The position numbers were made by a program, and so were the translations under genes. The notes below the pieces were generated by a model. It had not been told where the DNA came from and did no database searches. It saw nothing but the letters and a program-made list of their open reading frames with translations. A stretch of DNA of 20,000 nt. It comes from Phyllosticta citribraziliensis (lineage: Eukaryota). Every line of letters starts with the position of its first letter. The first letter of the stretch is position 1. Below, one piece after another: positions 1 to 20,000 of this stretch. The DNA is taken from positions 680,378-700,377 of the forward strand of contig NW_027117353.1 of NCBI RefSeq assembly GCF_038025025.1. The letters are read 5' to 3'.

Positions 1-1
1 A

Positions 2-310
2 GCAAAGTCAAAGGGTGCAGCACCGCCGCCGCCAAAGCCCAAGCCTGCCCGTTTGGCAGGATCGTCGGCGGTGGAGAAATGCACTGCACTTTATGACTAC
101 GAGGCGCAAGCCGAAGGCGACCTGAGTTTCTCGGCTGGCGAGGTCATTGAGATTGTGAACCGGACGCAGAATGAAAATGAATGGTGGACGGGCAAGACAA
201 GAGGAAGAACGGGCCAATTTCCTGGTGAGCTAATCCTTTCTGCCCATGGGCTAGGGGACAACCAACTGATCTTGATTTCAGGAAACTATGTGCGCTTAAA
301 CCCGCAATGA
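2..310 (+). CDS. RVS167: 3' end of amphiphysin-like BAR-SH3 protein (C-terminal SH3 domain); partial, exons <2-224 and 282-310
   Basis: Pro-rich linker then [47 protein letters not shown], closely resembling the fungal Rvs167/Hob1 SH3. Intron 225-281 (GTGAGC..CTGAT..CAG) restores the FPGNYV motif. Stop TGA 308-310. Confidence 0.85.
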
Positions 311-3300
311 TAGAATCCTTCCATCGCATGTCGACTCTTCCTGTCCAATCTCCTTGTGGATAGACGGCGTTGCGTAATGCTACGGAGACCTCCCAACATC
401 CACATTTTTCACTGGGTTGACTTTCATCTTTTTCCTGGCTCCTCGTCCTTCGCCAACCCAAATGATATCACTTGTCGAATTACTCGCGCCGACGGACTCT
501 CGCAGGGCTACATCAGCTCTTCCACTGTAACCGCAACCATTGATTCCGGTTTCTACTTATCTTTCTGACGACGGAGTTGGGCTGGGAGCTGTTGGGTAGA
601 ATGCAAGGAACGATTGGGGGCGGGATGGCCGTGTGGTGGTTGGACGGACATGTGCCGCGAGGGTAGCACACGGAAAACTGGCAGCAAGTGAAGAGAACCT
701 CCTAGGCATCGGCGAGTCGTGTCACGTCTTGGGTGGCCCCTCGAGTGGTGCCAGCTGTGCACACTGCCACGGCTCGCCGCAAACATTAACGTGAGAGAAG
801 GAGGCGAGGAGGAGTGGATGTGAGAGGAACCCGTGCCTCTCTTCTTCGCTTGGGACGCTGTCTGCTCATCTTTCCGTCTGCTTGTCCGTCCGTCCGTATG
901 TGGCTGTTGTACAATATATACATTTTCGTTCGCCCTGCGCCTGTTCCTTGCTCGGTCTTCCTACCCCCCGACATGAAAAATATTACCTCGCTCATATCGA
1001 ATCACTCTTGACCTGCTGCCCCTTGGCCGTTCCTTCTGCTCATCCCTTGCTTCATCCGCCTCGAGCGCTAGCCGTCGTCTTACTTGCTGTCCTTGTGCTC
1101 AACCCCGTTCAACCACAACGCTGAAGATCCCATACTGGCGTGACGTCGATGGACTAAACAAGTGAGCTAGCTCAGCAGAAAGACAAACGCAGACACCCAC
1201 CAAAACCAAAGGACAACAAGTAACCTTCAAGTCTGGTTTTCCCCGCACGGTTGCTCATTTGCGCATCACCTCTTCCTCACATCCTGCATCGAGGCTGTCG
1301 ATGCATCGGAGTCTGAGAAGGGCTGGCGGCGCTTTATATACCCTCGAGTACTCCACATGGTACCCCTGATTCCGCACGTGAAGCATCCTTGCGCTACATC
1401 ACATGTGCGCGCATGCGGAGCCTCCTGGCGCGTGGAGGGCGGTCGTGACTGTGTGTGCAAGGGAGGGGGTGGTTGAGTGGTCGGTGCGGTTGTTGTGCTT
1501 GGTGTATATATATATCTTCTTGTGCCGCTGTGCTGCTGGTCACTTTTCTGAGAAAGGGGCTGTGCCTGATTGAGGAGGTGCGTCACAGGGTCTTCACACA
1601 CGTACTTTGCGCCGCTTCTTTTTGTTTTTCGTTTTTTTTTGAGATTCTGATTGTTGGAGAAGTGGAGAATGTAGGGGAGGAGTGGTGCATCTTGAGGAAT
1701 AATGCAAAATAGCGTGGAATTCAAAGGGGGAGCGGGGGCGTCATAATTTAATGCTGATGTCCTGCCACCTGGCACGATGGTAGAGCGGGATTCACGCTCA
1801 TAGGAAACTCATGGCGGCAAAATGGAAGCACCAGAAAAAAGCAAAAAGTCTGTGTTCACAGAGATCCTCTTCTAACGGAGCACAGTGGCCCAGCTGTTTC
1901 GTGGAATTAGAGCGACGCGCTCACTCGCAGTGTTGTAAAGCTCAGGACAAGCGGGAGGGAGTGCCCTTTTATACTCCGCCTGGATGGACCGCGCTGTCAG
2001 TACGAGCGGCAGGTTGTGAAATGCACCTACTGAGCGACCGCGGGATTATCCAGCTGACCAAAAAGTCGCATGGGGACTGCGGAATCGGAGCGGTTACCAG
2101 CCCCTGATTCGCACAGTGCTTCTGCCGCTGGAGTATTTAAGCAGGAACCGCCGCTCGTTGTTTTCTGGCATCGAATTGTCGGCTTGACGGGGCGCTTTAA
2201 AGCACTGCGGCCCCTAAAAAAATTCCAAGCCCTCCGTGTACTATGGTTACTTTTGTGCTGTCTTTCTCGATGTGCATTTCACAACCCATGAGAAGACAGA
2301 GACAAAAAAGAGCAATTGATGCATGGATTCATCGTCATTGATCGATACTTGTCAGCACTGCTGGTCCATTGTCTTCTCTGCCACTTTATCATGTTAAAGA
2401 AACGAATCGTGGGCAGATCACCCCTGAATCTGATCCCAATGGCATAAAACCAAGAAAGAAAAGAAACAAGTGGAACGTGTCGATATCCGAGATCACCGCC
2501 GCAGTACCACATATTCGCGGTGCCTTTGTTAAGGCAGCGGACTTTGCCCTGTTGCCAGCCAAACCAGGGGAGCCCGAAACCTCCTTTTATACTTCAGAGC
2601 CTTCACATCACAAGCCAACAGCAGCCAAAACTTCCATCCGCACGATCAATCTCGCGCGTGACGCCATGCAATCACAAGCTACCCATTTAGGGGTATCAGC
2701 AGACAGCACTCTTTGGCGGCCAGACCAAGCCAGCGCACCAACCTTCCACATGCTTGTCTTGTGGCCGCGTGTCTGTGCTGACCCGACAAGTATTTAAGCA
2801 GTGCTTCTCTTCGCGAATTTCTCTTGCATTCAACCCTCAGAAACTCCACTCGGGCGTAAATTATCGACTATGGCACTCTTTTTTGGCCGTTGCGGTATTA
2901 TCTCTCATTTTATGTCCTGGGAGACACCACGGTATCATCGCAGTCACTTGTTCCGGGAGTTTGAAACCGTCGTGTCTGTCCTGGCTATCGGGTCGGCTTT
3001 TGGTGAAGTGCTTCAGTTTTGTGAGAGTACGACATTCTTCGGCAACATTGCTCAGTGTTGACCTCCACTGTTAAAAGGGGTTGGATATCCTTCCACCAAG
3101 CCGGAGCTCAGAAAGAACTTGTGGACAGCAGGGGAGACGACGCGGGACGCCAAAAAGCTTTGTGAATGTCGAAGCCCGAGAGAAGCAAGTAGAAAAATGA
3201 TTGTCCCTTGTCTCTCCAAAAGCACTGGGAAGCAGTTGTTGATGTCAGGAACAATTGAAGAACAGGATCGATCAAGCCTTTAATACCACCACGACGCCGA

Positions 3301-4673
3301 AACCGGACCAGACACGCCTCCTGGCCCCTGGGTAGGCTTGTGAACTCCACTGCCCAGCGGACATGTGCGCAGCGGCAAACCCCGCGCTGTCGCCGCCGGA
3401 CGCGAAGTATTTAAGTAGCTGCTCCCTCCCTCCGGACACTCATTCATTTGCAGCGACGTCCTGGGGTCTTTCAAAGATGATTACATTGCAAGTTCCTGGG
3501 TACTCGTGCCTTTGCTTGTGGAGAGCAAAGAGCTATTGAGTTTCTCCGGTCGCTCGCCCGGCGCCCGGGTGCGAAGATCTTGGGAGGAGAGTACATCACA
3601 CCATGACGCCACTGTTTCATAACATGGAGATACACCAGAATCCAAGCTCTTTCATTGTGTCTCAATGTAGAGCACCAACAATCTGTTTTTTTGCATACCC
3701 CTGAGAGCTCCAAGTCAGCCCATCGCTCATCCGCTGCCGTCAGAGTCGTCATGACTTGAGCGGCAGCGGAAGACTCAGCAGTACTGTCCCCTCAATCTCC
3801 AAGAGAGACCGAATCTCGTATTTGAGGTGCCTGTTGAGCGAGGACGAGCTGCGGAAAGGCGAGACTTTATACCTCTTCATCCCTACGGTCTCCGGAAAAT
3901 GGCAGGTGATCCGCGACGTGGGAGGCAGACACGGCCACGACGACGTCTGACGGACCTGAGGAATGACCAAAGCGCCTGTCCATCGTGAGCGAAATCGGCT
4001 TCTTCAGCGCTTACACGTGAAGCGCCAATTTTCGAGGGTCGTCGAGCACTCAACGCCCCCCGTGACCGCATGCGTACATATTTTAGAGCATAGATACGTG
4101 GTGAGGTATGTTCCAACTCGCCTTTACATACTGCGCTGTAGCCGGGCATCATGCCGAACAAACCGCTTTCCCTAGACAGACCGGCGCAAAAAGGCCGTAC
4201 AGCATTCCATCGACAATCAACCGACAAATCCAATTCGCCTGGCACTCCCGCGTCCAAGAAATGAATGAAATCCACCGTGGTCCGTCTTCTTGGCATCATA
4301 TCCATACCAAAAAGAGAAGGAAAGACAAGTCCTGTGCAACCAAGGCCAATCGACGATACGAAACCAGACAGGCCAGAGCCCAGCGAGCGAGCATGGAGCC
4401 TCCATCGTGGCTGATGACAATAACACAAAAGAAAGAACTCCGGCACGCCTTCTATGCTCCAAATCCAGGACAGATTGATGGGAGTAGGTAGGTAGGACAG
4501 AAGAAGCAAGGTGATAGACAGGAAGAATCTCGAGCAAGACGCCGACCGCTTTTCCCAGTCGTCCAAGCCTTGCATCCACAAATTCAAAATCGACATATGA
4601 CACAGCTCTTCCTCTTCATCTCTCTTCGGCCATCACCATCATGCAGACATAAAGGGAGGCGGGCAAATCCCGC

Positions 4674-6785
4674 TCACACGTCCGAGCTGTCCATGGCCCA
4701 AATCTCAATGTCCTTGACGGCGCTGCGGTCTACGCGCTTGACGACGCGCCGCACGTCCTTGTCGCGCTCCTCTTCCGGGCGGCCCCCGCCATTCCAGTGT
4801 TTCCGGGCCTGGATGCCGGGTCCGCCTTTGCCCACGCCATTGGCCCCATGAGCTCCTCGCACGCCAGGGCTGTTTTCCGGAGTGCTCGACGAGCCGCTGC
4901 TGCCGCTACCATTCAGGGCAAATGGACTCGCATTTGCACTTGACACCGTCGTCAACCCCCCGCAGTAAAACACCGTGTCGGCAATCCCGAGCCACCGCAT
5001 GTTGTCCCACTCTTTCCGCCGCAACTCGAGGGACAAGATACGCTCGCCCAGCGCGCCGGCAGCCGCGTCGAGCGGATCCATGCCGGGGACATTGCCCGGC
5101 CCGTACATTAGCAGCCTTAGCGCAAAAAGCTTGGGTGTGTGGTGTAGTGCGCTGCGCACCGCGCCCGGGTTCTTGTCTTCCATTGCGACACCGAGTTGTT
5201 CGAGATTCGGGCACGCGCGGAGGAGCGAATTGAGAGATGAAGGTGTTAGGAGCCATTGGTCGGAGAGCAGGAGGTGCCGCAAGCTGCCGCCAATATCGCG
5301 CGTTATGGCGGCGAGGTAGTCGGCGGCGAGGGCGGCATTTTCCCGGCCAATCCGTGGTGAAGGGGCGGTGGTTGAGGCGGATGGAGGATTCAGGTCTGGT
5401 GTGCGAGGAGAATTGGTTGGATTGCTGATTTTGAATTCGTTGGGCGCGTTGGACGTGTAGACGTGGGTTTGGTGTGCGATACCGTTGGCTGGGCTAAAGG
5501 CCGCGCTATTGCTGGTGGTGCTGGGAGAGCGCTGTGACTGCTGTCTTCGGCGTGTGCTGACCGTGATGAGGGTTTCGAGCTGCTTCAGTTGCCCCAGCAT
5601 CTGCACTGCGTTTTTATCCATGGAATCGCCCCGCATTGTCTTGAGGTTCTTGGGGACATGCTTTGGAGCAAACAGGCGCCAGGTGTCGTCCACAAAAACT
5701 GTCATGGCTTCTTCGGTTTGGCAGTTGATGAAGATCATGTGCTCCAGCGTGTCGACGCTTATGACATCCTCCATGTCTATGCTGTCTGCTCTCGTGTAGA
5801 GGTTGACCAGAGCAAACCTTCTGAGTTGTAGGGTAGTCTTTGCAGCCACGCAGCGACCAAAATAGGTGTTGAGATTGGTGCTTTCTTCGCCTTCGTCTCG
5901 CATTCGTGGGCTGAAGTGCATTGTCAGGGCCTCGAGCTGTTTGGCATGCATGAGCATGATTGATATGTCGTCGGGATAACAGAGAGGATCTATTTCCAAG
6001 GCTTTGAACTCGCGCAGGTTTGGGAGAGGGGGTATCACAACGGTGGGCCGGGGTATTCGCGTATTTGGAAATTTAAGGGTGAGCGAGGTGAGCGAAGGGC
6101 AGGCCATTGCGCCTTGGTATATTGTGGAGAGCGGTTTGGTGTTTAGTTCCCAGCTGCGCGCGCACGTCAGCCAAAGCCCGTCGCATTTCTTGCGAAGCTG
6201 CCATACCCAAAATGCTCCATCCTGTCCATGCGATCCATTGCCGCTCTCACGGCTATGTTGAGCATCATTGAATTGTCTGGAACGCGGCCTTTGGCGAAGT
6301 CGTCAATGTCGCTTTCGCGCCATTCTCCAACCAACCGGAAGCTGCGCACATAGCGCGCTACATTCTTGGTGACCAGCCCATTCAAACCCATTGTGAAGGG
6401 GCTGCCGCTCCCGAAACCCTCGGGCCGTCCATTTTCTTTGTAGCGCAATTCGCTGTAGGATCGCAGTGTCACCTTTTCGTAGAGGCGGGGCAAGGTCATG
6501 TAGTACAGGAGCCGCGAGGTCCGTGTGATGCGGGCGAGGTCATCGATTTCGTCGACCTGGAGCGCGTTGGCTGTCAGCTCGTCTCTTCAAGCGGCGCATC
6601 CGCACACAGTCGACGCCCGGGCACAGGCAGAAGCGGTCAACACACACATGGGAGAGGATCAGGGCCAACAGGTTGAGCGGCAGGTTGCGATGGTGGTAGG
6701 CGGGGACAGGACTGGTGTAGGCGATGGGCATCTGGGGCGCGTGGAGCGCGTCGATGTTGATCTTTTGTTGGTTGGTCGTCGGCAT
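4674..6785 (-). CDS. Fungal F-box-like protein with LRR/RNI-like C-terminal region, ~655 aa; exons 6785-6648, 6556-6207, 6153-4674
   Basis: Spliced N-terminus LPLNLLALILSH|VDEIDDLARITRTSRLLYYMTLPRLYE is F-box-like. Introns 6647-6557 (GTGTGT..GCTGAC..CAG) and 6206-6154 (GTATGG..GCTGAC..CAG) give a continuous 1968-nt frame. LRR-like segments include LRHLLL and CPNLEQLGV. Confidence 0.8.
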
Positions 6786-7400
6786 GGCGGCTGGGGGTTG
6801 CTGGGGTCCTCAGGTTGCGGGCGCCGGCGCCAGGGTCGGCGGGGTCTTGTCGAAGTTGGTCCCAAGGCTCGCGCAGCTTTTGGGCGATGTGCGAATCTGA
6901 TATCGGCAAGACTGCATTGGCGGTGGGTGACGAGGTTCTTTGAGCGCTGTGGCTTGTCCGGATTGCAGGGACCAAAAGAGACACCGGATGGTCGTGGAGC
7001 CGGCTGTTAGCTTAGCACAAGCTAGCTTGAGGTTCCCCGGGAGCGACCAGCGACCCCTGCCCCCGTGCATCGCATCCACCATCCTCTGTGCCCGCTGCTG
7101 ATGCGAATCCGAACGTCATACCTTTTGCTTTCCTTTACTTCTTGCATCACTCCCAAGAGCCCATCATTATTACTCATCACTGGCAGCTACATGCACCAGA
7201 ACCACGCCCGCCGTACAGTAGTCCCATCCAATCCACTTCGCCCGAAACCCCCTCCCGCTGCTTGCATGGATATACTCAAAACCGCCGCACGCTACAGTGG
7301 GCGTTCGTGTGTCTCCCCCGACGCATTTCGTCCGAAAAATCAAACCTCAGTCCACCTTGTCCTGGATCCCCACGGCATCATCCCCTTCCACCCCGTAGAC

Positions 7401-9372
7401 TTAAAAACCCGTGCTCCTGTGAATCCAAGGAGCCTGTCCGTCGTAGCGAGCTCCGGGCGCAGTGAATGGGATCGCCAGAGTCCCGTCAAACACCCCAAAA
7501 TCCGGCACCTGGCCCGCCTCGCTTCCCTTGCCCGCCGCCAGCTCCCTCGGTACAGGGATCAGCACGCCACACTCATAGTTGCGAACCGTCAACTTCGGCG
7601 TTCTGGTCTCCCGATCTGTCGTCATGGAGCCCCAAGCGCTCTCCGTCAGGTTGGCGCTGCCGACGTACACCCACGCAACCTTGACGTCCCTGTCTCCGTC
7701 ATCCTCGCGTCGTCCGCGAGCCAACATGATCTTGTTGTGGCTCAAGACACCCTCCCTCGTCGACTTGTGATCATGCATTACCTCTTTCGGAAAGGTGGGA
7801 GCGTCGTAGAATTTCTTCATGAGGGTGATGGTGCTGGCTGCATTGGGGCCACCTCTGCTGGATTCGACTGTGTTTTGCGTCGGAAAATACACTCTGAACT
7901 TTGAAGCCAGATCAGCCGCGGAGATGTCAGTCGCATTCCTGAGGGTCAACGGTTTGACCTCTTGGCCTGTCTCTCGTCAGCAACGAGCTAAGCCCCCGCT
8001 TGAGCCAGGATACTGACCTCGTGCAGCAGCAAGCATCTGAGTGAGGAAGGTTTTCTTGAGGGCGCCGAGCGACGAGGTCGCGTAATCGAGTTTGAGGAAA
8101 TTAGTCTGCAGACCCAGCTTCTTCACGGCGTGGGAAAGACCTGTGATGCCAGTTCGCTGTGCATCGTCACCGACGTGAGTGCCGGCCCTGTCAGAGTCAG
8201 CATTGGCAAAGAGCAGGCTTCTTCTTTGACACTTACATTGAATGAACAAACGCAATGTCCCTGGTGCGCGAAAAGTCGAATTTGTAGAGGCTCTGGACGA
8301 TGGCAGGGCGCATGTCCACGTAGCGCAAGTAGCGAATCAGCTCTTTGCCAAAGAAGGTCATGTTCTCTTCGCTGGTTGTATGGCCGTCCAGAAGACGTGG
8401 GAGGTCGACAAGGAAGACACTGTTCTCCATGTTGCCCCTCTCGCCCCAGTCATAGTCTGTCAAGTTGGCCGAAGTGACGACAACGCGAAGGTGGGTTGGG
8501 AACGACAGGATGAGGAATTTGCCGTGGTTGATAGTCCTGATGCCACTCATGTCGAGAAAGCGAACGGCCAAGTTTGGTATCATAGACGGGCCTTCAGCGA
8601 AGGAGTCCTTCATGGCCTGGTCCGTGGCGCCGATGGCCCAGACCTGGCTGGTCTTGGACGGGTCGATCTTGTTCATCCACCAAGCCGTGTCGAATTGGAA
8701 AGCGCTGAGAGCCACCAATTGCAGCTTGTCCTTTTGTAAGATCTCTTCAATCTTAACATCGTTTCCCCGCGGCTGTCCAAAGCACCACGTCTTTTTGATT
8801 GTCGGGTTCAAGTACCGCAGCCCGGTAGCATTTGGTCCGGCATAACCGGTAGATGTGTGATGTTGGCGCTGCGCGTAGTAGCCGTAGGTCGAAGTGGAGT
8901 CAGGCGTGGGCGTCGAATTCGCGAGTGCGAGGTTGCGACGGATGCCATAGGCTGGCTCTCGCGGGACATCGTGGAAGCTCTCAAGAGACCGAAGGTTGGC
9001 GCTGGAAGCCTGCTCTGCGAGACCGCTTCCACGGGCCTTCTTGGTGTTGGGAGCTTTGTCATCGTCGGAATTAGGGTCGACCTGATTGAGCGCGCGCTTT
9101 CGCGCCGCGTTCTGACGTGCCAGGCGTTCCATCTCCATTTGCTTCCTATCGATTGTGGCGAACGAAGAGCTGGGATTTGTCGCAGACGGTCGCTGTTCGA
9201 TGTTGGCACCTGATTGAAGTGGGGATGGTCCTAGGGCGTCACCAGTCTCGTTGGTTGTGGGTGGTTGAGGCGACGCAGGTGGGTGGGAGGAGTTTTGAGT
9301 TGTTGGGCGAGCGGGCTCTTGCCCGAGAGACATGGCAATCGCCAGCTGGAGCTCCTCGTCTTCGCTGGACAT
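7401..9372 (-). CDS. TDP1: Tyrosyl-DNA phosphodiesterase 1-like (PLD superfamily) with N-terminal ubiquitin-interacting motif, ~623 aa; exons 9372-8237, 8187-8018, 7966-7401
   Basis: Two HxK..N motifs: NHGKFLILSFPTHLRVVVTSANL and SHNKIML..WVYVGSANLTESAWG, plus RNYECGVL. UIM SEDEELQLAIAMSLG at the start. Introns 8236-8188 (GTAAGT..CAG) and 8017-7967 (GTCAGT..GCTGAC..CAG) give an 1872-nt frame. It may be a paralog rather than the canonical TDP1 ortholog. Confidence 0.85.
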
Positions 9373-9916
9373 GGCCGCCGACACATGTGATGCAAGTGGA
9401 ATGGCATCGTGGTGATGAAGATGATGTCGTTGCTGTAGCCGTCGCGTCGCAGCCGAACCCGACGCGACTTGCGGCACACGCACAGTCACGTGTATTCTAG
9501 GTTGTCTTTACCTTATTAGGAAGTATACCCGAGGCGGCAACCCCCGCATGCATGCCCCGGTGTTTTCCGTTGTTTTCCTGTCCTTTGTGCACTTCGGTCT
9601 GCTGAAGGCACCGCTGTGCTACTTTGCATGCACAAACGCATTTCTACTCTGAAATTGCCCCATGTACGTCTGCTGGAAGCCCGAGCTGCAGTCCCGCCTG
9701 TTGGTCTTACTCCTCTTTTTTCAGAAATAGCACGGATGAAGGAGCTTCCGACTTCCCCTAGACTGCTTTTCTGCTTTGGGTGAGCACGGAGAAAAGTGAT
9801 GCCACGAGAAGCAGCGAGAGAAGGCCTTTGGGAAAATCCTTTGGCACATGCGTAGGCCATGTTCATCCTCAAATTCCCTCCACCAAAGAGTGATATGCTA
9901 GCGCGGAACCAACCAA

Positions 9917-10351
9917 TCAACCCCCATGCAGGGTAGATACAAACAGCACAGTGTCGCCCTTTTGAAGCTCGTACTGCTCCTCTCCTTCCAATTCCCAGTC
10001 AGCCTCGTTGATGAGAACGAGGATACCGGGTCGTCTGCCGAAGAAATGAGCGAGGATACGGCGTCGGCCTCGGGGCAGGACTTACACAGTATCATCAAGC
10101 ACAAAGAGGTCTTTCCGGTGGTCCTTCATCGTGTTCTTGCACAGGTACCGCACGAGAAAGGCAACGTTGGCAGGGTTTCCGTCCTCGCCTTTGGCTGGCA
10201 GAGCAATGTCATGCTTGCGCTGGTTTGAGAACAACATCTCGAGACCTCCTCTGCTCCTCGTTAGCACAGAAAGCTGGAGATGTTCTTTGAACGCAACCTA
10301 CGTAAATTCCACCGTCACTGGTACCACATCTTGGCCGGATGCTGTCGCCAT
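9917..10351 (-). CDS. URM1: Ubiquitin-related modifier 1, 110 aa; exons 10351-10302, 10250-10086, 10034-9917
   Basis: Spliced product [76 protein letters not shown] has the Urm1 signatures [23 protein letters not shown] and C-terminal STLHGG. Two 51-nt GT-AG introns. Confidence 0.97.
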
Positions 10352-10709
10352 GTTTTTGCTCTAAAGTCGTTGCCGCCGGAGTCAGGTACTTGCGCAGGAC
10401 TAGCGTCGGTGATAACGAGCCGTTGCTTTCGAATTTTGCTCGTGAGAATCTTCGGGTCTCACGCTTTGCTCGTGGAATCTGGTTGCCTCGATTTTCTGGG
10501 CCGTTTGATGATGTTTGATCGTTGGGCAGCGCAACGTCGTCTCTACCGCGGCGGCAAAATTACGCGAGGGAGCTAGCGCCAAAATTTCCTGGTGTTGAGC
10601 CACACCATCAACAACACCACGCACTTCGCCCGACGCACACCTGCCCGGAAAGTCCATTGCAAAGCTTAAGCAGAAAAAGCAAATCTGACCGACACCCAGT
10701 GCTCCAGAC
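10352..10709. promoter_or_regulatory. Short divergent intergenic region shared by URM1 and ELP2 (probable bidirectional promoter)
   Basis: Only 358 bp separate the two start codons on opposite strands, and this must hold both 5' UTRs and promoters. No specific binding site assigned. Confidence 0.6.
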
Positions 10710-13529
10710 ATGATGGAGACGACGACAAACTTCATTGCAGCGGGCGGCAACCGAAATCCATCCGCCGCAGACTGGGACCCGCATGGCTCAGGCCTGCTTG
10801 CCTATGGCGCTGGAAACAACCTTGCCCTCTGGAATCCTCTCGTGAGTCTCTCGGAACTTCCTAAATCTCTTGTCTAGTCTCCACCTTTGGAAGCAATTTT
10901 TTACTCAACTCTATGTTTGCAACGCGACTCGCAACTTGTCCAATCATTCATTCTCGATTGTCATCATTGTCCACTCTTTGGCGGGGCAATTCATCACCGT
11001 TGTCTTCCCTCTTGCTGAGGTCTCTTGTGCCATCTGCTTCTCAAACACGTCTCAGCCTAACGCGCGCAAGGACATACATTACCGCGGCTGCACCGCGCTA
11101 CTCTCTGGTCACACCAAACCTATCAACGTTGTCAAATTCTTCCGCGGGTCAAGAGATCAGAGGACCATTCTGCTCACCGGAGGTGCCGACAGTAGCATCA
11201 GGATTTGGGCCAGCAGTGATTCATCAGCCAACGGATTCCAGCAGAAGGATGTATTGGCCGCGCATTCAGCATCCATCAACTGCATAGCTACCCTACCAGA
11301 TTCCGACGTCTTCATCTCTGGAGCCGCAGATGCTACGATCAAAGTCTGGAGGCTTGCCACCTCTGCGGATGAGTCGTTTCAAACAACTCTCCTCCAGGTA
11401 CGCCCCTCCACTTGTGCCTTCGACGCGACTGGCGCCGACAAGTAACCCATGTCTAGACGATCGACCTTCGCAAAAAACCCAAAACTGCATACTTCCCTCT
11501 CTCAATATCTCTTGCTCGCCTGTCTACTTCAACTTTGGTGTTTGCCTCTGCTGGCACAAAAAACTACATCCAAATCTATGCCCAAGACAGCAATGGCAAT
11601 TTCATCAATGCTGCCACGCTGAAAGGACACGAAGACTGGATCAGGTCGCTCAATTTCACGCACGAGAATCCTTCGGTGGCATCAGACTTGCTGCTTGCAT
11701 CAGCTAGCCAGGACAAATTCATTCGCCTGTGGCGATTTCACGCTGGCGAAACGTTGCCGGAAGTCAGTCGCGCAGCCGACAACCCCGCGCTGGGCGCGTT
11801 GGGAAAGAGTTTGCACAACAAAGCCCACCGGATAGATGACGCTGATGGAGCCCCTTACACCATCACCTTCGAGGCCCTTCTGGTTGGTCATGAAGACTGG
11901 ATCTACTCGGCTCAGTGGAGGCTTTCGCAAGCTCCGACATCTGAGAATGGCGCTTCAACACAGACTCTCCAGCTTCTCACTGCATCTGCCGACAACTCGC
12001 TAGCCATCTGGTCACCAGATCCGCTCTCTGGTATTTGGGTGAGCACAGCGCGGCTTGGTGAAATATCTGCGATAAAGGGCGCAACCACGGCCACAGGATC
12101 AACAGGTGGCTTCTGGATTGGACTGTGGTCTCCCGACGGAAGCTCTGTGACTTCTCTTGGGCGGACTGGCTCATGGCGTCTTTGGAGCTACCACGCGGAG
12201 GAAGACAGGTGGACACCTCGAGTCGCCGTGTCGGGTCACGTCCGCGCCGTCAAAGACCTCTCTTGGAGTCCTGATGGATCGTACCTGTTGTCAACATCAT
12301 CAGACCAGACCACAAGACAGTGGGCGCAATGGAAGCGAGACAGGGGCAATCCTCTCGCATCTTACCACGAATTCTCGCGGCCACAAATCCACGGCTACGA
12401 CCTCAATTGCCTGGCGACACTTTCACCTCTTCGATTCCTCTCCGGAGCAGACGAGAAGCTTCTCCGCGTATTCGATCAGCCTGCTTCCGTCGCTGAGCTG
12501 CTCGAAAACTTGTGCGGTGTCACTCCCCAGGGCGAGAAATCAGCACTCCCAGACGCTGCCAATATCCCTGTACTCGGCCTCAGCAACAAAGCTATCGATA
12601 ACACGGCAGGAGATGCGGAGGCTGAAAACGGAGGAGCTGAATCGGCCGAAGAACTCGCTGAGAAACCGACGAAAGGCCTTTCTCTCACCCACCCTCCCCT
12701 TGAGGAACACCTGAGTCGACATCTGCTGTGGCCCGAGCATGAGAAGCTTTACGGGCACGGTTACGAGATAAATTGCGTTGCTGCGACACACGACGGGGCC
12801 CTGGTCGCTACTTCATGCCGCGCCACATCTGTTGACCATGCGGCAATTCGTCTCTACGAAACTGCAACGTGGCGGCAGGTGGCCCAAAAAGAATTGAGCA
12901 AGACCACTAGTGAGCCAACCATGAAGCTACATTCTTTGACGGTGACCGGGCTTGAATTTTCCCCAGGAGACAGCAGGTATCTTCTCAGTGTTGGCCGAGA
13001 CCGCGTGTTCGGCTTGTGGGAAAGAGACGAAGACGAGTCAAAAGGATACAAGCTGTTGCACTCGCAGGACAAGGCCCATTCGCGAATGCTTTTGGGTGTT
13101 TCATGGGCGCCACTGGTGGAAGACAACAAGGTGTTCGCCACTGCAGGACGCGATTTGAAGATCAAGTTGTGGAGGCTTGCGGAGACCGACGGCAAGACCG
13201 CGACATCAAACATTGCGACAGTACCGGCTACCGCTCCCGTCACGGCTCTCTCATTCTGTCCCGTAGTTACCGGCTCGGAGAAGCAAGTCTTGATGGCATA
13301 CGGGACTGAGAAGGGAGCCATCAGCTTGGTCGGGTTTAGCCTGGAGGCCTTGTCGAAGGGAGAGATCGATGTTAGACCGCTGTCGACCGAGATCCTGGCA
13401 GATGATGTGGTGCCGAGTGATGCAATCACTTCGCTGGCTTGGAGGCCCACGAGCATAGTCGATGGGCAGTTGGAGCTGGCGGTCAGCAGCGACGACGGAA
13501 GCGTGAGGATCTTCGGAGTGAGCTTTTAG
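10710..13529 (+). CDS. ELP2: Elongator complex subunit 2 (WD40 repeats), ~843 aa; exons 10710-10841, 11071-11397, 11457-13529
   Basis: Elp2 motifs FIAAGGNRNPSAADW, LKGHEDWIRSL, LLASASQDKFIRLW, FEALLVGHEDWI, HEFSRPQIHGYDLNC, SGADEKLLRVF, LWPEHEKLYGHGYEI. Introns 10842-11070 (GTGAGT..CTAAC..AAG) and 11398-11456 (GTACGC..TAG). Confidence 0.96.
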
Positions 13530-13807
13530 CTTGTCTTCGAGGGCGAATCATTGTGAAAGGCAAGTCCGGATTATCTGTATCTCACCGAGCTCATCCACAG
13601 GGACATAGATGTCTGGAGCTTCTTGTTAACGGGAGGCAAAAGCACAATAGAGATTCCAATCCAACAACTGCAGGACGTTTGCACGACAAGTTCAACTCAA
13701 GTTACAGTCGCACCGTCTTAATTTCGGACAATGAACAGCCCATATCGACAATTTGAATCTGCAGTCCGCCTGAAAATCCCGGGAGCTCGAAATGTTCGCC
13801 AAACAAT

Positions 13808-15358
13808 CTAGTGCCACTTGAATGCCGAACCTGGGTGGTCGTCCCGCAACCTTGGCCCCTTTCCATCAGCATAGTAATTTTCTCTCGTCGTTGCAGCTGG
13901 ATAATCCTCCCAAAACACACCACGCTTCCGCAGCTCGGGCCAGAGCCACTTGATGATGTCCTCAAAGTCGCCCGGATTGATCGCGTATGGGATGTTGAAG
14001 CCGTCGACCCCTGCCTCGTCTACCCAGGTTTGCAGAATGTCTGCCACTGTTTTCGGCGACCCAATGGCTTTCGGGAGTGGACCACCGACTGCCAGCTCCT
14101 CCGCTACGCGCTTCTTTGTCCACCGGGCGCCGTCAGTTCCAGGGACTGTGGCGCTCCAGCAATTGACCATGGACTGAATCCCTGGGGTACCTGTAAAGCG
14201 CAAGTCCTCGTCGTCTGAAAATTGGCCAAAATCGGTGCCAGTCCAGCCAGCAGCCAGTACCAGCGACCCCTCCAGATCAGCATACGACATGTACTCTTCA
14301 TACTTGGCGCGCGCCTTCTCGTCCGTTTCATCCACGATGATCAACATGCCAATGATCAGTTTGGGCGTGCCTGGGCCCCGACCGTTCTTCGCTGCGAGGG
14401 CTCGGATGTCGTCGACTTGCCCGCGCACGGTGTGTGTCTCGAAGCCGGTCAAGAACATGCACTCTGCATATTTGGTTGCAAAGGCCTTGCCAGCAGGGCT
14501 CGCGCCTGCTTGAAAGATGGATGGCGACCGTTGGATCGAAGGCTCGTTGGTAAAAGGACCCGCAACCTTGAAGTACTTTCCCTCGTGGTCGACACGACGC
14601 ACGCGGCCCGGGACCGTGAAAACGCCCTTCTTTGCGTCTTTGACCACAGCGTCATCTTTCCAGGAACTTTCCCACAACTTCAAGGTCACCTGGAGGTACT
14701 CTTCGGCAATCACGTACCGCTCGTCGTGCGGAATCTGGGTGTCCAGGTTGAGGTTTCGCGCGGCGCTTTCGAGGTAGCTGGTCACGACGTTCCACGCAAT
14801 CCGGCCCTTTGTCAGGTGGTCCAGCGTCGAGTACTTTCGCGCCAAAAGAAATGGTGGCTCATACGTCGTCGAAGCCGTCACTCCGAAGGAGAGATGCTTT
14901 GTCACTGCAGCCATCGCTGCGATTGGCATCCTATGACGTTTAACTCTGCAAACAGGGCTACACCCGGAAAGAAGTCATCTCACAATGGATCCGAAATGGG
15001 GAACTGAGCGGCACCTGGGAGCGCAGAATCAATGTTCCCCGGGCCCTTGTACACATCGTATACGCCCAGCATGTCGGCGATGAAGACACCATGGAATTTT
15101 CCTGCCTCGAGGATCTTGGCAAGGTCGGTCCAGTATTCGATGTCTGTGTATTCTGCTGTTCTGTTTTTCGGATGGCTCCAGAGACCTTGGCATGTTACCA
15201 CGTTGTCCGAACTGACTAGCCTGAGGCTGCATACCTGCTGCGACATGTCCCGGGGAGCTCATCGAGAAGGCGTTCATGATCCATTGTTTCTTTGGAGCCG
15301 ATCCATTTGTCGATCCATTGGCCTCGACGCCGTTTTTCTCATTACTCAAGTCAGCCAT
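13808..15358 (-). CDS. FMN-dependent luciferase-like monooxygenase, NtaA/SnaA/DszA family, ~482 aa; exons 15358-15235, 15185-14984, 14930-13808
   Basis: GLWSHP..YWTDLAKILEAGKFHGVFIADMLGVYDVY, DPLMPIAAMAAVTKHLSFGVTASTTYEPPFLLARKYSTLDHLTKGRIAWNVVTS, QAGASPAG..FA, GVDGFNI. Introns 15234-15186 and 14983-14931 give a 1449-nt frame. Confidence 0.92.
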
Positions 15359-15426: not shown

Positions 15427-16105
15427 TTATCAGACCCGGCGCCAATGATTTCCTCAACTTGACTTTGCTTCCGTCCCGCTCAAACCTTGCTGCGAGGGCA
15501 CGTCATTGCAGCTTGTCATCACATCACTTTTCGATCACCTTCGTGGTCGCAAGTCAGCGTTCTCGCCTCAAGCATCACGATCGCCGCCGGGACATGGTTC
15601 AAAGAAGCTGTGCGGGATGTTCGCTCCGCTCCGCTGTTGGCGCCGGCAGCCCAGACCAAACTCTGGGTCTACTGACACAACACCAACTTTGTGCATTCGC
15701 AACTTTTTCGCGGACCCTGAAATGAAACTACGCAAGCGGCGATTTGCTGTCCGCGTACAGTCTTCTCTCAAGCTTTCGATTTGGCTCTCATCGCGACGCA
15801 TTGCCGGAAATGGAAGGTAAGGCATTTTGTCGTGCCGCTGATTCTGGGGTGTTGGATGATACCATGGAGCTGATTATGAGACAATATCTGCTGGCGCAAG
15901 TTTTCCCTGGTCCTTCCTTCGATAGCGATAGGACAGATGCAATCAGGAGCAAGATAGGAAACTTTTTTCGACGACTAAACGAATCTGCACTTGCAGCTGG
16001 AGGGCCCATCTTTCTGGATACACGACTATATTTGCACACATGCTCGAGATCGACAATAACGATAGAATTGATGTCTATGGCATCATTGTGGCTCTATCTC
16101 GATAG
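15427..16105. promoter_or_regulatory. Cluster of HGATAR sites (candidate AreA/NIT2 nitrogen-control elements) in the monooxygenase-transporter divergent intergenic region
   Basis: CGATAG at 15920, 15926, 16060 and 16100; AGATAG at 15952; AGATAG on - at 16094-16099; TGATAA on - at 15427-15432. Confidence 0.45.
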
Positions 16106-16215
16106 CGCCTGCGGTGCTTAATGCTAGGGAAGCCGGGAAACAGGTGGACAGTCACGGGCCCTCTGGCTGTTTTTCTCGACTTTTCAACCATCACATATCG
16201 TACCGACCACACGAA

Positions 16216-18727
16216 ATGGCAGAAACAGTCCCACCACCCCTCTCGCAGGCCGTAGGATATGGAATCGTCGTTGGGCTTGGAGCTGCCTTCGCCATTGGTG
16301 AGTCCTGGATCCCACAACCTGCGAAACTACTGTACACTATTGCTGACAACCTAGGCATGGTATTTGTGACCAGAGCTTTGAAAAACTCATTCGGCGAAGA
16401 CAATCGAACAACGGAGACGTACGTATGAGCTCCCTCGTTGCTTTGAAATCAACGGGGAATAAATGACGGCGACAGGTTCATGGTTGCAAACCGCACCGTC
16501 GGCACTGGCCTCACTGCATCGGCCGTGATCAGCTCTTGGACTTTTACTTCCGCACTTCTCGGCGCTCCTTACCTGACGTACTGGTACGGAATCGCATTAC
16601 CCATTTGGTGGGCCAATGGCCAGTCCGCGATGATCTGTTTCTTCGCCTTCCTCGCGATCCAGGCAAAATTGAAGGCGCCCAACGCGCACACGCTGACAGA
16701 GCTGATTCGCACGCGCTATGGAACCGTAGCTCACATCACTTGGATCGTCATGGCGTTGCTGAACAACATATTTAATTTCACGAGCATGCTCGTCGGCGCC
16801 AGTACGGCCGTGAGCGCCTTGACTGGAGTCGACATTGTTGCCAGCACGTACTTGCTGCCGCTTGGAGTCGTCATCTACACCTACTTCGGTGGTCTCCGCG
16901 CTACTTTCTTGACTGACTATGTCCACACCTTCATCATCATGATCGTCCTGGTTTGGTTCTCGATCAAGGTGATTGTAGTAAAGGAGATTGGATCACTGGG
17001 CGATCTCTACGACGCTGTTACCGAGCTATCGGGCAATGGCACGCCTGTTGAGGGGAATTACAAAGGAGACTACTTGACCATGACAAGCAGAGAGTCTCTT
17101 CTTTGGAATCATTCACATTGTGTTGAGTGCCCAAGGAACCCCAACCCGAGATGAAGGTTTGCTGATTGCGGTATAGAACAAACTACGGGATCGTGATCAT
17201 GGATACCGGCTTTTGGCAAAAGGTGAGTTTGTGAAGGAGGTCAGGGCCGACGAAGGTGCGAAATCAAAGGGTATATTGTATTAAGTAGGTAAGTCGGGTA
17301 GTGATATCGTCCTAGACGACGCCCGCAGCAGCACCACGCTAGACTATCTATGGACTAGCGCCTTAGCTATCTAACGACTCTACTGCCTACTAGAGACTCC
17401 ATCCTCTATTAGTTTAGCTAATCTATTTAGAGACTAGCTTATTAATACTATAAGGGGTTTTCTACTAATATTACTACTATAGTCTTAAGATATATTCTTA
17501 AAGGGAATATATACTTTACTATTCTATAAGTATTTAGAACTATTATTAGGCTTAGTATACTAGCTCTAGAGTAGATACCTATATTTCTAATATATTTAAG
17601 AGTAAGCTATATTTATTTTATAAATATTCTAAAACTAATAATAAGTAATAAATAATAAATATAGAGGTAAGTAGAGGTCTAGTCCTTTTATATATAGCTT
17701 AAGTAGTTACTAGAAAAGGGGGTACTATAGCTATTCTATTAATTCTATTTATAGTATATACCTCTATTATATTAGCTCTTCTTATTACTATAAGCTCTAT
17801 TATCTTATTTAATATCTATAGTAAGTATATTAATAAGAATCTAATAGACTAAGAACTTATTTACTAGTTATATATTAGTATTATTAGTTCTATACTATTT
17901 ATTTTATTACTTATTACTACTTTCTATAAAGGTAGTATTAATCTTAACTAGACTATTTATATAATTAGTATTATTATATATTTAGAAACCTTCTCTACCT
18001 ACTTTATACTACTCTAAAAAGACTAGATAGAGGCCGCTACTATTATTAGCCCTATATATAGTATAGTCTATAGTTTTACTATCTAGATAGGTATTATATA
18101 CTACTTTTCTAGTAAAATTATAATTATATTAACTAGTAAGACTCTATCTTATATATATACCTATTTAATATCTATATTTATCCTACTATTTATTTTAGTT
18201 ATAATATTACTTATATAGCTAAGTAAGTTTAACTAGAATAAGTTTATAGAGATTAAAAGAGTTAATCCTAACTATTTAATATTAGTTATAAAATTTAACT
18301 ATAATATATACTTTAGCCCTAAATAAGTAGCTTTTATAAAAAGAATAAGTTAATAGGTAGCCCTCTAGGTACTTATTATTTTTTTTAGCTAGATTATTCT
18401 ATAGCTACTACTAATATATAGTATAAAGTTTATTTTTTTAAAAAAGGTCTATATTAACTAGTTATTATATATCTACCTTATTATTAACTAACTATATACT
18501 AGGTCTTTATTATTTAGGTTATTATATTACTTTTCTAGCTATAATTTACTTTATTTATTATAAACTTTTACCTATTAATTAATAGAGGTATCTAGAAGAT
18601 CCTACTTATTTTAAAAAGTACTAAAGAACTCTATATTAAAAATAGTTCTAAAAGTAAAAAGATTATTAATATAGAAGATAATATAAGAATTAATATTATA
18701 GATATTATTAAAAAGACTAAAGATTAA
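16216..18727 (+). pseudogene. DUR3: DUR3/UreA-like urea/polyamine transporter (SSS family) pseudogene: 5' half readable with one frameshift, 3' half RIP-destroyed. Exons 16216-16297, 16355-16418, 16476-17121, 17177-17222, 17455-17601, ~17646/17652-18446, 18503-~18727
   Basis: 5' part reads PPPLSQAVGYGIVVGLG, FMVANRTVGTGLTASAVISSW, KAPNAHTL.E.IRTRYG, GGLRATFLTDYVHT, GNYKGDYLTMTS, NYGIVIMDTGFWQK. The 3' part holds one frame per exon with only TAA/TAG stops and de-RIPs to VPGYILGG.YFAIPWAFGT, PIFPTYP, EVSGGLVLPY.AQAVAGKGG, AVSSIISFDIYG.YIN, ILWPLPMYG, NFYPLIDGG. The 3' end is approximate, and orthology to yeast DUR3 versus a paralog is not established. Confidence 0.9.
17231..17410. mobile_element. 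Possible ~180-bp insertion (solo-LTR/MITE-like remnant) in DUR3 intron 4
   Basis: Intron 17223-17454 is 232 nt versus about 45-57 nt for the gene's other introns. AGTTT direct repeats lie at 17226-17230 and 17411-17415, and removing the insert plus one copy leaves a 47-nt intron. Ends GTGAAGGA..TCCTCTATT are only imperfectly inverted. Confidence 0.3.
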
Positions 18728-19866
18728 TTCTATTACTTTAAATATTTTATTTATAAGTAGTTAGTCTAGAGCTAGTTATTTATAAGATAATTTAATAGCT
18801 ATCTTACTAATTAAAAAATTTTTAATAGATAAGAAGTAGTAGATAATAAGTATTAAGTTATTATTAAGCTATATATTAAATATAGTACTACTTCTAAGGC
18901 TCTACTTATAACTATATTTTAATAATTAACTTAAAGGTTATAATATTAATATATATTTTAATAAAAATAATATAAACTCTTCTTTATTCTATATTTATTT
19001 ATTTAGCTATATATAAATTTTATAAAATTATAAGTTCTATAATATAAATAGTATCTTAAATATAACTATTAACTAATAAAAAATTACTTAACTAGTAGTT
19101 ACTAATTCTAAGATAGAAGATAAGTATAAAATCTATAATATAATTTAGTAGCTTATTATAGATCTTAAGGTATTAGACTAGATTAATATAGACTTATTTA
19201 AATAGGCCCTTTTAATAAATTATAAGGGCTATAAGCTACTAATTAAAGTCTATTACTTATTTTAGAAGTCCTATTTAAAAGAAAATTTTAAAATAGAAGA
19301 CTTTAAAGCTCTTTTATTTTTAAATTAAAGTTTATACTTTTTCTACTTATATTCTAAATAGAGTAATAATAAGTAAGTAGTTAGATTTATATTATTTAAG
19401 TACTTATTAAAATAGAATCTTTTATTATTTAAAAAGAAAGATATTTTTAAATATCTAAATATAAATTAAGTCTTTAATCCTAACTAGATTAATATTAGAG
19501 TTTTAAAAGACTAGAAAAAAGAGTATATTTTAAATTATAGCTTTAAATATAAAAACCTAGTAAAGATCTAGAAAATATAGCTAGCTTAGCTTATTAATAT
19601 AGTTTAAAAGTATCTAGTTTTAAGGAGTATTTCTATAGAGGCCCTCTATATTATAATTAGCTATAGTTATAAGAACTAAGTAGGAATTAATATTAATTAT
19701 ATAATATTAAATAGACTATAAAAAGATAGAGCCTTAAATACTTTTAAAATTTCTATAAGACTAGCTATTATAATTAAGTATATTATATATTTAATATATA
19801 AGATTAATAAATAGTATTTATAAGTAGATATATTCTATATTATAAGAGTAGATCCTATTATAATAA
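17402..19866. other. RIP-saturated AT-rich terminal block
   Basis: By-eye scan found no CpA or TpG after position 17401, one CpG (18035-18036) and a large excess of TpA. This is the classic repeat-induced point mutation signature. A partly mutated transition zone spans ~17270-17401. Confidence 0.93.
19044..19866 (+). pseudogene. RIP-destroyed HET-domain (heterokaryon incompatibility, PF06985-like) gene, truncated by the telomere
   Basis: One uninterrupted frame from 19044 with only TAA/TAG stops. De-RIP reading gives CxxC (19125-19136), DPDWID..LKDWK..C..HG.KCENP.KIW..RPAWLIDV..KCLVPG..YVAISY and I.ERYLWVDALCI (observed AAA TAG TAT TTA TAA GTA GAT ATA TTC TAT ATT, 19809-19841), the HET hallmark motifs YxALSY and YLWVDALCI. 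The start (ATA from ATG at 19044) is inferred. Confidence 0.8.
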
Positions 19867-19901
<35 letters not shown>

Positions 19902-20000
19902 GGTTAGGGTTAGGGTTAGGGTTAGGGTTAGGGTTAGGGTTAGGGTTAGGGTTAGGGTTAGGGTTAGGGTTAGGGTTAGGGTTAGGGTTAGGGTTAGGGT
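19867..20000 (+). repeat. Telomeric (TTAGGG)n array, 22 units including one TTTAGGG variant
   Basis: Tandem TTAGGG from 19867 to the window end with the G-rich strand running towards the end. Extra T at 19879. Confidence 0.99.

Follow-up and report, generated by a model that had tools for sequence, protein, structure and literature searches.

Organization of the chromosome end

The DNA described here is a stretch of 20,000 nucleotides from Phyllosticta citribraziliensis (RefSeq assembly GCF_038025025.1, contig NW_027117353.1, positions 680,378 to 700,377 of the forward strand), which is referred to below as the window and which ends in a telomere. Towards that telomere one encounters the un-mutated 5' part of a gene for a DUR3-like transporter, then the 3' half of the same gene and a truncated HET-domain gene, both of them saturated with mutations of the kind that repeat-induced point mutation (RIP) produces, and finally the telomere repeats themselves. 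A sequence-only reading had ascribed to this end a last ~2.5 kb devoid of CpA and TpG, starting at 17223, in which a DUR3-like 3' half and a HET gene separated by a spacer of ~300 bp could be decoded, with a telomere on the broken end and no transposon array in sight.

The un-mutated 5' part of the transporter gene (16216-17222, + strand) corresponds to residues 1-280 of its orthologue in Phyllosticta citricarpa, an SSS transporter of 614 amino acids (P0001), and is 92% identical to it over 16447-17100. Alignment to this protein gives exon blocks at 16216-16296, 16354-16419, 16477-17122 (split by a change of frame into 16477-17092 and 17093-17122) and 17178-17222. PF00474 is present in the listed relatives of this part, which places the gene in the SSS family, among the DUR3-type (urea-type) transporters. 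The change of frame is a frameshift without an intron (17084-17095, + strand), at which ...TMTSRE and SLFFGIIHIV are read in different frames: near 17090 frame 0 gives SRESLLWNHSHCV, where the orthologue has SRESLFFGVIHIV, a reading found in a second frame, and in that frame SLFFGIIHIV (17093-17122) scores 49 against 24 +/- 4 for shuffles. Judged by eye, the frameshift fits the loss of two nucleotides in an AG run, and it may stem either from decay after the gene had died or from an error of assembly.

The RIP-mutated 3' half of the transporter gene (17446-18625, + strand) aligns with residues 278-614 of the orthologue in four blocks that follow the order of the protein (17446-17601, 17664-18338, 18369-18449 and 18545-18625), and the changes of frame at 17602-17663 and 18450-18544 are probably introns. 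The plain BLOSUM62 local score of this alignment is 495, as against 36 +/- 4 for 30 shuffled proteins; plain BLOSUM62 was used because a scoring matrix taking the maximum over possible ancestors reached 800-900 even for shuffled proteins. The mutated translation also recovered 118 of 120 DUR3 homologues in a local phmmer search (database size 1.84e9). With 12 in-frame stops in the aligned mutated half, in addition to the frameshift near 17090, no intact reading frame is left, and the transporter gene is a pseudogene.

Some details of this half concern the annotation of the orthologue rather than the mutation. Ten codons of the mutated frame (18339-18368) are extra to P0001, and past the C-terminus of that protein the frame continues for 33 codons (18626-18727), being open until a stop at 18725-18727. 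Since other homologues exceed P0001 by 40-50 amino acids, P0001 may be a short annotation. Among metagenome contigs the closest DUR3 relative (L001) reaches no more than 65% identity and lacks a HET gene in the surrounding 10 kb, and it is too distant for its locus to be informative on DUR3-HET synteny.

Between the transporter and the recognisable part of the HET gene lies a stretch (18626-19388, no strand assigned) made up of the intergenic spacer and of the beginning of the HET gene, which can no longer be recognised, and in this stretch hmmscan, phmmer and a profile of 112 homologues found no match to a family or homologue. With the transporter frame ending at 18625 or 18727 and the HET gene starting somewhere in ~19060-19389, the spacer would measure 330-760 nucleotides; there is a spacer between the two genes, as had been read from the sequence, but this range takes the place of the ~300 bp given for it. 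A codon model, built from coding DNA of the window that was mutated in silico, chose the right frames for DUR3 and favours frame 0 of the + strand from ~18810, specifically for 18810-19170 and 19350-19868. In the terminal kilobase the frames could not be told apart by their stop-codon density, and the codon model did better.

The relic of the HET-domain gene (19389-19856, + strand) takes in the N-terminal region and, of the HET domain, the first half. When the favoured frame of 18630-19868, with stops written as X, was compared exhaustively by phmmer with 1.84 billion representative proteins, seven matched with E <= 0.001 (best 6.3e-14) over 19419-19856; all seven carry PF06985, and the best of them is a HET-domain protein of 747 amino acids from Phyllosticta capitalensis. 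Of the six frames, the 112-homologue profile matched only one, at 19389-19853 (E-value 1.1e-18). In the alignment with the homologue P0121, whose HET domain begins at residue 185, the relic covers residues 109-254, and the match ends at the LW.D.LCI-like motif of the domain, about four codons before the telomere. Homologues have 624-747 amino acids and the match halts near residue 254, so that the HET gene lacks about two thirds of its length at the 3' end.

Two other searches of this region gave negative results that have to be read with their controls. Pfam hmmscan of the six frames of 18600-19868, again with stops as X, yielded no match, which carries no weight because the same search also missed PF00474 in the mutated DUR3 half, used as a positive control. 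A word-indexed protein search with 19290-19868 (longer proteins) returned 391 candidates, none with E <= 10, and this should be seen as an effect of the word index, since the exhaustive search later succeeded. The phmmer searches against full-length homologues easily found both families in RIP-saturated translations where Pfam hmmscan missed them, and phmmer with stop-as-X translations should be useful for decoding further RIPed tracts.

The telomere (19867-20000, + strand) consists of 22.2 TTAGGG units and extends to the end of the window. Its units are perfect except for a single variant, TTTAGGG, near 19879 (19873-19885), the second repeat from the junction. All 21 matches to telomere repeats fall within 19867-19999, and no interstitial copies were found in the window, either at the edge of the RIP-mutated tract or elsewhere. 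The HET relic, whose last position is 19856, is followed by the telomere repeats from 19867 on, with no subtelomeric repeat in between, which is the arrangement of a healed break. The telomere thus abuts a HET gene cut at about one third, and it would appear from this junction that the chromosome was broken inside the HET gene and then capped by a telomere.

RIP-type mutation of two ordinary genes

The RIP-saturated tract (17401-19866, no strand assigned) is 2,466 nucleotides long, contains neither CpA nor TpG and only one CpG, and has a GC content of 0.147-0.235. CpA and TpG are in fact absent from the whole of 17401-20000, so the CpA- and TpG-free last ~2.5 kb that had been reported is indeed there. 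RIP-mutated DNA is expected to show a high TpA/ApT ratio, a low (CpA+TpG)/(ApC+GpT) ratio and a composite RIP index above 0. In every 500-nucleotide interval of 17501-20000 CpA and TpG are 0 and GC is 0.16-0.26, and in the intervals from 17501 on TpA/ApT is 1.45-1.77, (CpA+TpG)/(ApC+GpT) is 0.0 and the composite index is 1.45-1.77 throughout. In contrast, the 500-nucleotide intervals upstream of 17000 (17 kb) have composite indices of -0.27 to -1.42, a GC content of at least 0.49 and 59-87 CpA+TpG each. The last CpA or TpG lies at 17400 and the last CpG at 17375, except for one at 18035. This lone CpG is situated in a small GC-richer island of the saturated tract, GAGGCCGCT.

We also mutated the 17 kb upstream in silico to complete CpA/CpG saturation, which in 85 intervals gave a GC content of 0.207-0.302 (mean 0.258), as compared with 0.147-0.235 in the tract. 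Mutation of the tract therefore exceeds CpA/CpG saturation. It is also somewhat heavier distally, GC being 0.15-0.18 there (from 18400) versus 0.20-0.235 proximally, with CC+GG declining from ~0.03-0.04 to 0.007-0.02 along the tract in the proximal-to-distal direction. The distal drop in GC may reflect either a gradient of mutation or a difference in original composition.

We examined the damage at the level of codons, asking for each codon aligned with a homologous protein whether it could be derived by C-to-T or G-to-A change from a codon for the residue found there; this is a test against proteins and not a base-by-base count on DNA. In the DUR3 half, 244 of 252 codons (97%) are RIP-compatible with P0001, whereas two mock mutation models give 124-125 of 252 (49-50%) and permuted residues 21%. 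All eight Met codons are now ATA, six of the seven Trp codons are now TAG or TAA, and the 12 in-frame stops face Q, R or W. In the HET relic, 105 of 146 codons (72%) are RIP-compatible with P0121, against 55-63 of 146 under the two mock models and 20% with permuted residues; the single Met codon is now ATA, all five Trp codons are now TAG or TAA, and the 11 in-frame stops face Q, R or W, plus one D. Since DUR3 relatives at ~55% identity show a compatibility much like these 72%, the HET match is to a member of the family and not to the orthologue. The tract is thus the product of RIP-type (G:C-to-A:T) mutation of two ordinary genes, which are those that the sequence-only reading had decoded.

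The inner edge of the tract

The transition from normal to saturated DNA takes place entirely inside one intron of the transporter gene (17223-17454, + strand, ~232 nucleotides), which opens with GTGAGT at 17223, directly after the exon end TGFWQK at 17222. On its other side the first three codons aligned with the orthologue (17446-17454) are the tail of the intron, and coding sequence is resumed by KGFS from 17452. The density of CpA and TpG is normal up to 17277 and thins out beyond it, with eight left in 17302-17400 and none thereafter, so that the whole transition takes less than 180 nucleotides. The start of the tract had been put at 17223, and this can be kept as the onset of the transition zone, but saturation does not begin there, as 15 CpA/TpG remain in the 178 nucleotides of 17223-17400. 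A RIP signal is absent from the un-mutated 5' half of this gene. At ~232 nucleotides this intron is longer than the two others whose limits are fixed by exon blocks, each of which measures 57.

Origin of the tract

For the trigger of the mutation the sequence-only reading had offered either a duplication, past or present, or a process driven by the chromosome end, a formerly adjacent repeat array being mentioned there only as something that would speak against the latter. The explanation that we favour, and to which we would assign a probability of about one half, is a conventional one, namely that the terminal segment was once duplicated and was then mutated by ordinary, homology-triggered RIP. 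The segment from ~17300 outward would formerly have existed in two copies within the same nucleus, which could have come about by break-induced replication onto another broken end, by a terminal translocation from which a cross produced a duplication, or through a breakage-fusion-bridge palindrome. RIP would then have mutated the segment across several sexual cycles, and mutation would later have continued in the AT-rich heterochromatin thus formed. The partner copy would either sit at another chromosome end or have been lost through segregation or truncation. The transporter gene would have died in consequence, its untouched 5' half gaining the frameshift afterwards.

Several features of the tract argue for such an event. 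Because 2.47 kb are saturated and background is reached within 180 nucleotides, we favour an event bounded by homology over one of spreading, all the more so as the dead, and hence unselected, 5' half of the transporter gene shows no tail of mutation, whereas published leakage of RIP is graded. On its outer side the tract is limited by the telomere itself, as expected if a segment was copied to the end. The steps required have, moreover, been documented in Magnaporthe oryzae, where the published account (PMC7367193) describes terminal truncation with de novo telomeres, duplication of ends by break-induced replication or non-homologous end joining, loss of the template copy and RIP of genes in segmental duplications. 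The P. citribraziliensis end resembles those described there in having telomere repeats directly on truncated unique sequence, and that account includes ends that were duplicated and whose template afterwards disappeared; unlike here, however, the events it describes are mitotic and tied to telomeric retrotransposons, whereas at the present end there is no such element and RIP has overwritten the region. Mutation beyond saturation, finally, would be accounted for by continued DIM-2-type mutation of AT-rich heterochromatin, as that process is presented in PMC11969663 and PMC10246852.

Other observations weigh against a past duplication. The window holds no second copy of the tract, and within 17000-19868 only low-complexity matches of up to 43 nucleotides were found. 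Mutation that goes beyond saturation and is heavier distally is explained equally well by spreading from the end and by differences in the original composition, and feed-forward between AT-richness and heterochromatin might likewise produce a sharp edge. In addition, random terminal duplications would not lead one to expect that the tract, at 2.5 kb, should be of a size similar to the roughly 2 kb described in Neurospora.

An alternative explanation, which we regard as unlikely, is that RIP leaked step by step into single-copy DNA. A transposon or subtelomeric repeat would once have lain distal to the HET gene, and RIP or DIM-2-type mutation would have moved inward over successive cycles through the HET gene, the spacer and half of DUR3, until the repeat was lost in a terminal deletion and the end was capped by a telomere inside the HET gene, which by then was already mutated. 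As the HET gene is truncated by the telomere, distal DNA has certainly been lost, and the mild gradient in GC along the tract is also in keeping with leakage. Single-copy genes beside repeats do receive it: in the AvrLm6 region of Leptosphaeria maculans, as described in PMC2973834, RIP-type mutations and stop codons are found in cellular genes of single copy, much as they are here. In that description, however, leakage is partial and graded and the repeat is present, whereas here 2.47 kb are saturated, the edge is abrupt (less than 180 nucleotides) and there is no repeat. The same article cites leakage in N. crassa that extends over at least 930 bp of single-copy DNA and falls with distance. 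An effect of DIM-2 on single-copy DNA adjoining RIPed repeats has been documented, and DIM-2- and heterochromatin-dependent RIP (bioRxiv 10.1101/115501; PMC11969663) would explain both mutation after saturation and mutation of adjoining single-copy DNA, but in the form described there it starts from repeated DNA. At the present end the dead 5' half lacks the mutational tail, and no remnant of a repeat is seen in the window.

One may also consider that no duplication was ever involved, and that telomere repeats, or heterochromatin seeded by them, recruit RIP/DIM-2-type machinery premeiotically, so that the adjacent 2-3 kb at a healed break become AT-rich. We hold this to be quite improbable, although the tract does border precisely on the telomere and is made of ordinary genes, no repeat being in sight, and its mild distal-to-proximal gradient is compatible with such an origin. 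A tract of similar size adjoins Neurospora telomeres according to the description of those ends (PMC2596135), and AT-rich DNA is described as recruiting H3K9me3, HP1 and DIM-2 (PMC10246852), which makes a self-sharpening front conceivable. If true, nucleation at the telomere would explain why tracts of similar size, unrepeated elsewhere, are found at this Dothideomycete end and at Neurospora ends. In the literature searched, which consisted mostly of titles and passages, we nevertheless found no precedent for a process independent of duplication. What Neurospora telomere repeats and new ends induce, as reported in PMC5752202, is H3K27me2/3 over ~180-225 kb, i.e. a different mark on a different scale, and the term RIP does not appear in that article. 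An all-or-none edge, too, is unlike simple spreading. The possibility that an AT-rich contig end was mis-joined to the gene, or that the AT-rich tract is not due to RIP, has hardly any probability, for although a single assembly stands behind the join, mis-assembly is very unlikely because one and the same gene crosses the edge in correct exon order, and the changes are specifically G:C-to-A:T, with which 97% of codons are compatible versus 49-50% in mock models.

Relation to Neurospora chromosome ends

Many Neurospora ends reportedly finish in RIP-like AT-rich DNA that is mostly unrepeated now. The AT-rich DNA beside Neurospora telomeres has been described as made by RIP, with an original sequence that is now beyond recognition. 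What is added here is that the erased content is still legible, consisting of two ordinary genes and neither of a transposon nor of a subtelomeric repeat family, and that the inner edge can be placed within ~150 nucleotides inside an intron. The end also illustrates how a break, combined with RIP, may in one stroke do away with both a transporter gene and a HET-domain gene (a member of the heterokaryon-incompatibility family).

Neurospora crassa ends, as Smith et al. 2008 (PMC2596135) describe them, carry AT-rich, CpA-poor and TpA-rich DNA over roughly 2 kb from the first TTAGGG unit to the most distal gene, and have no common subtelomeric repeat family. Those authors suggest that the tracts "may have once shared homology", an argument of the kind made above for a past duplication. 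RIP-like AT-rich tracts of ~2 kb beside telomeres are thus already described in Neurospora, and the present end has the same anatomy in a Dothideomycete, being a short RIP-like AT-rich stretch beside a telomere, depleted of CpA and enriched in TpA, without a shared subtelomeric repeat. It differs from the tracts of that description in that two specific cellular genes can be read, that its inner edge lies in an intron, and in its host. By itself this case does not argue for a new process, and past duplication of the terminal segment remains the explanation that we prefer; nonetheless, this chromosome end is a convenient test case for the origin of telomere-adjacent RIP tracts. In one Phyllosticta genome paper RIP is mentioned solely in the reference list.

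The remainder of the window

Among the 16 open reading frames taken from 1-15258 are those of a tyrosyl-DNA phosphodiesterase, of WD40 proteins and of a luciferase-like monooxygenase, and none of the 16 contains a transposon domain. No AT-rich block was found upstream of the tract in the window. Thus, as far as the window reaches, no transposon array is in sight, just as had been stated from the sequence. Of the 31-mers sampled from 15500-19866, 12% occur in one "surface metagenome" run and next to none in three more runs, a result of no evidential value. On the - strand, an open frame of 542 amino acids (4674-6302) has as its sole Pfam match a leucine-rich repeat of the F-box-associated type, which at 21.3 bits is below the cut-off of 27.

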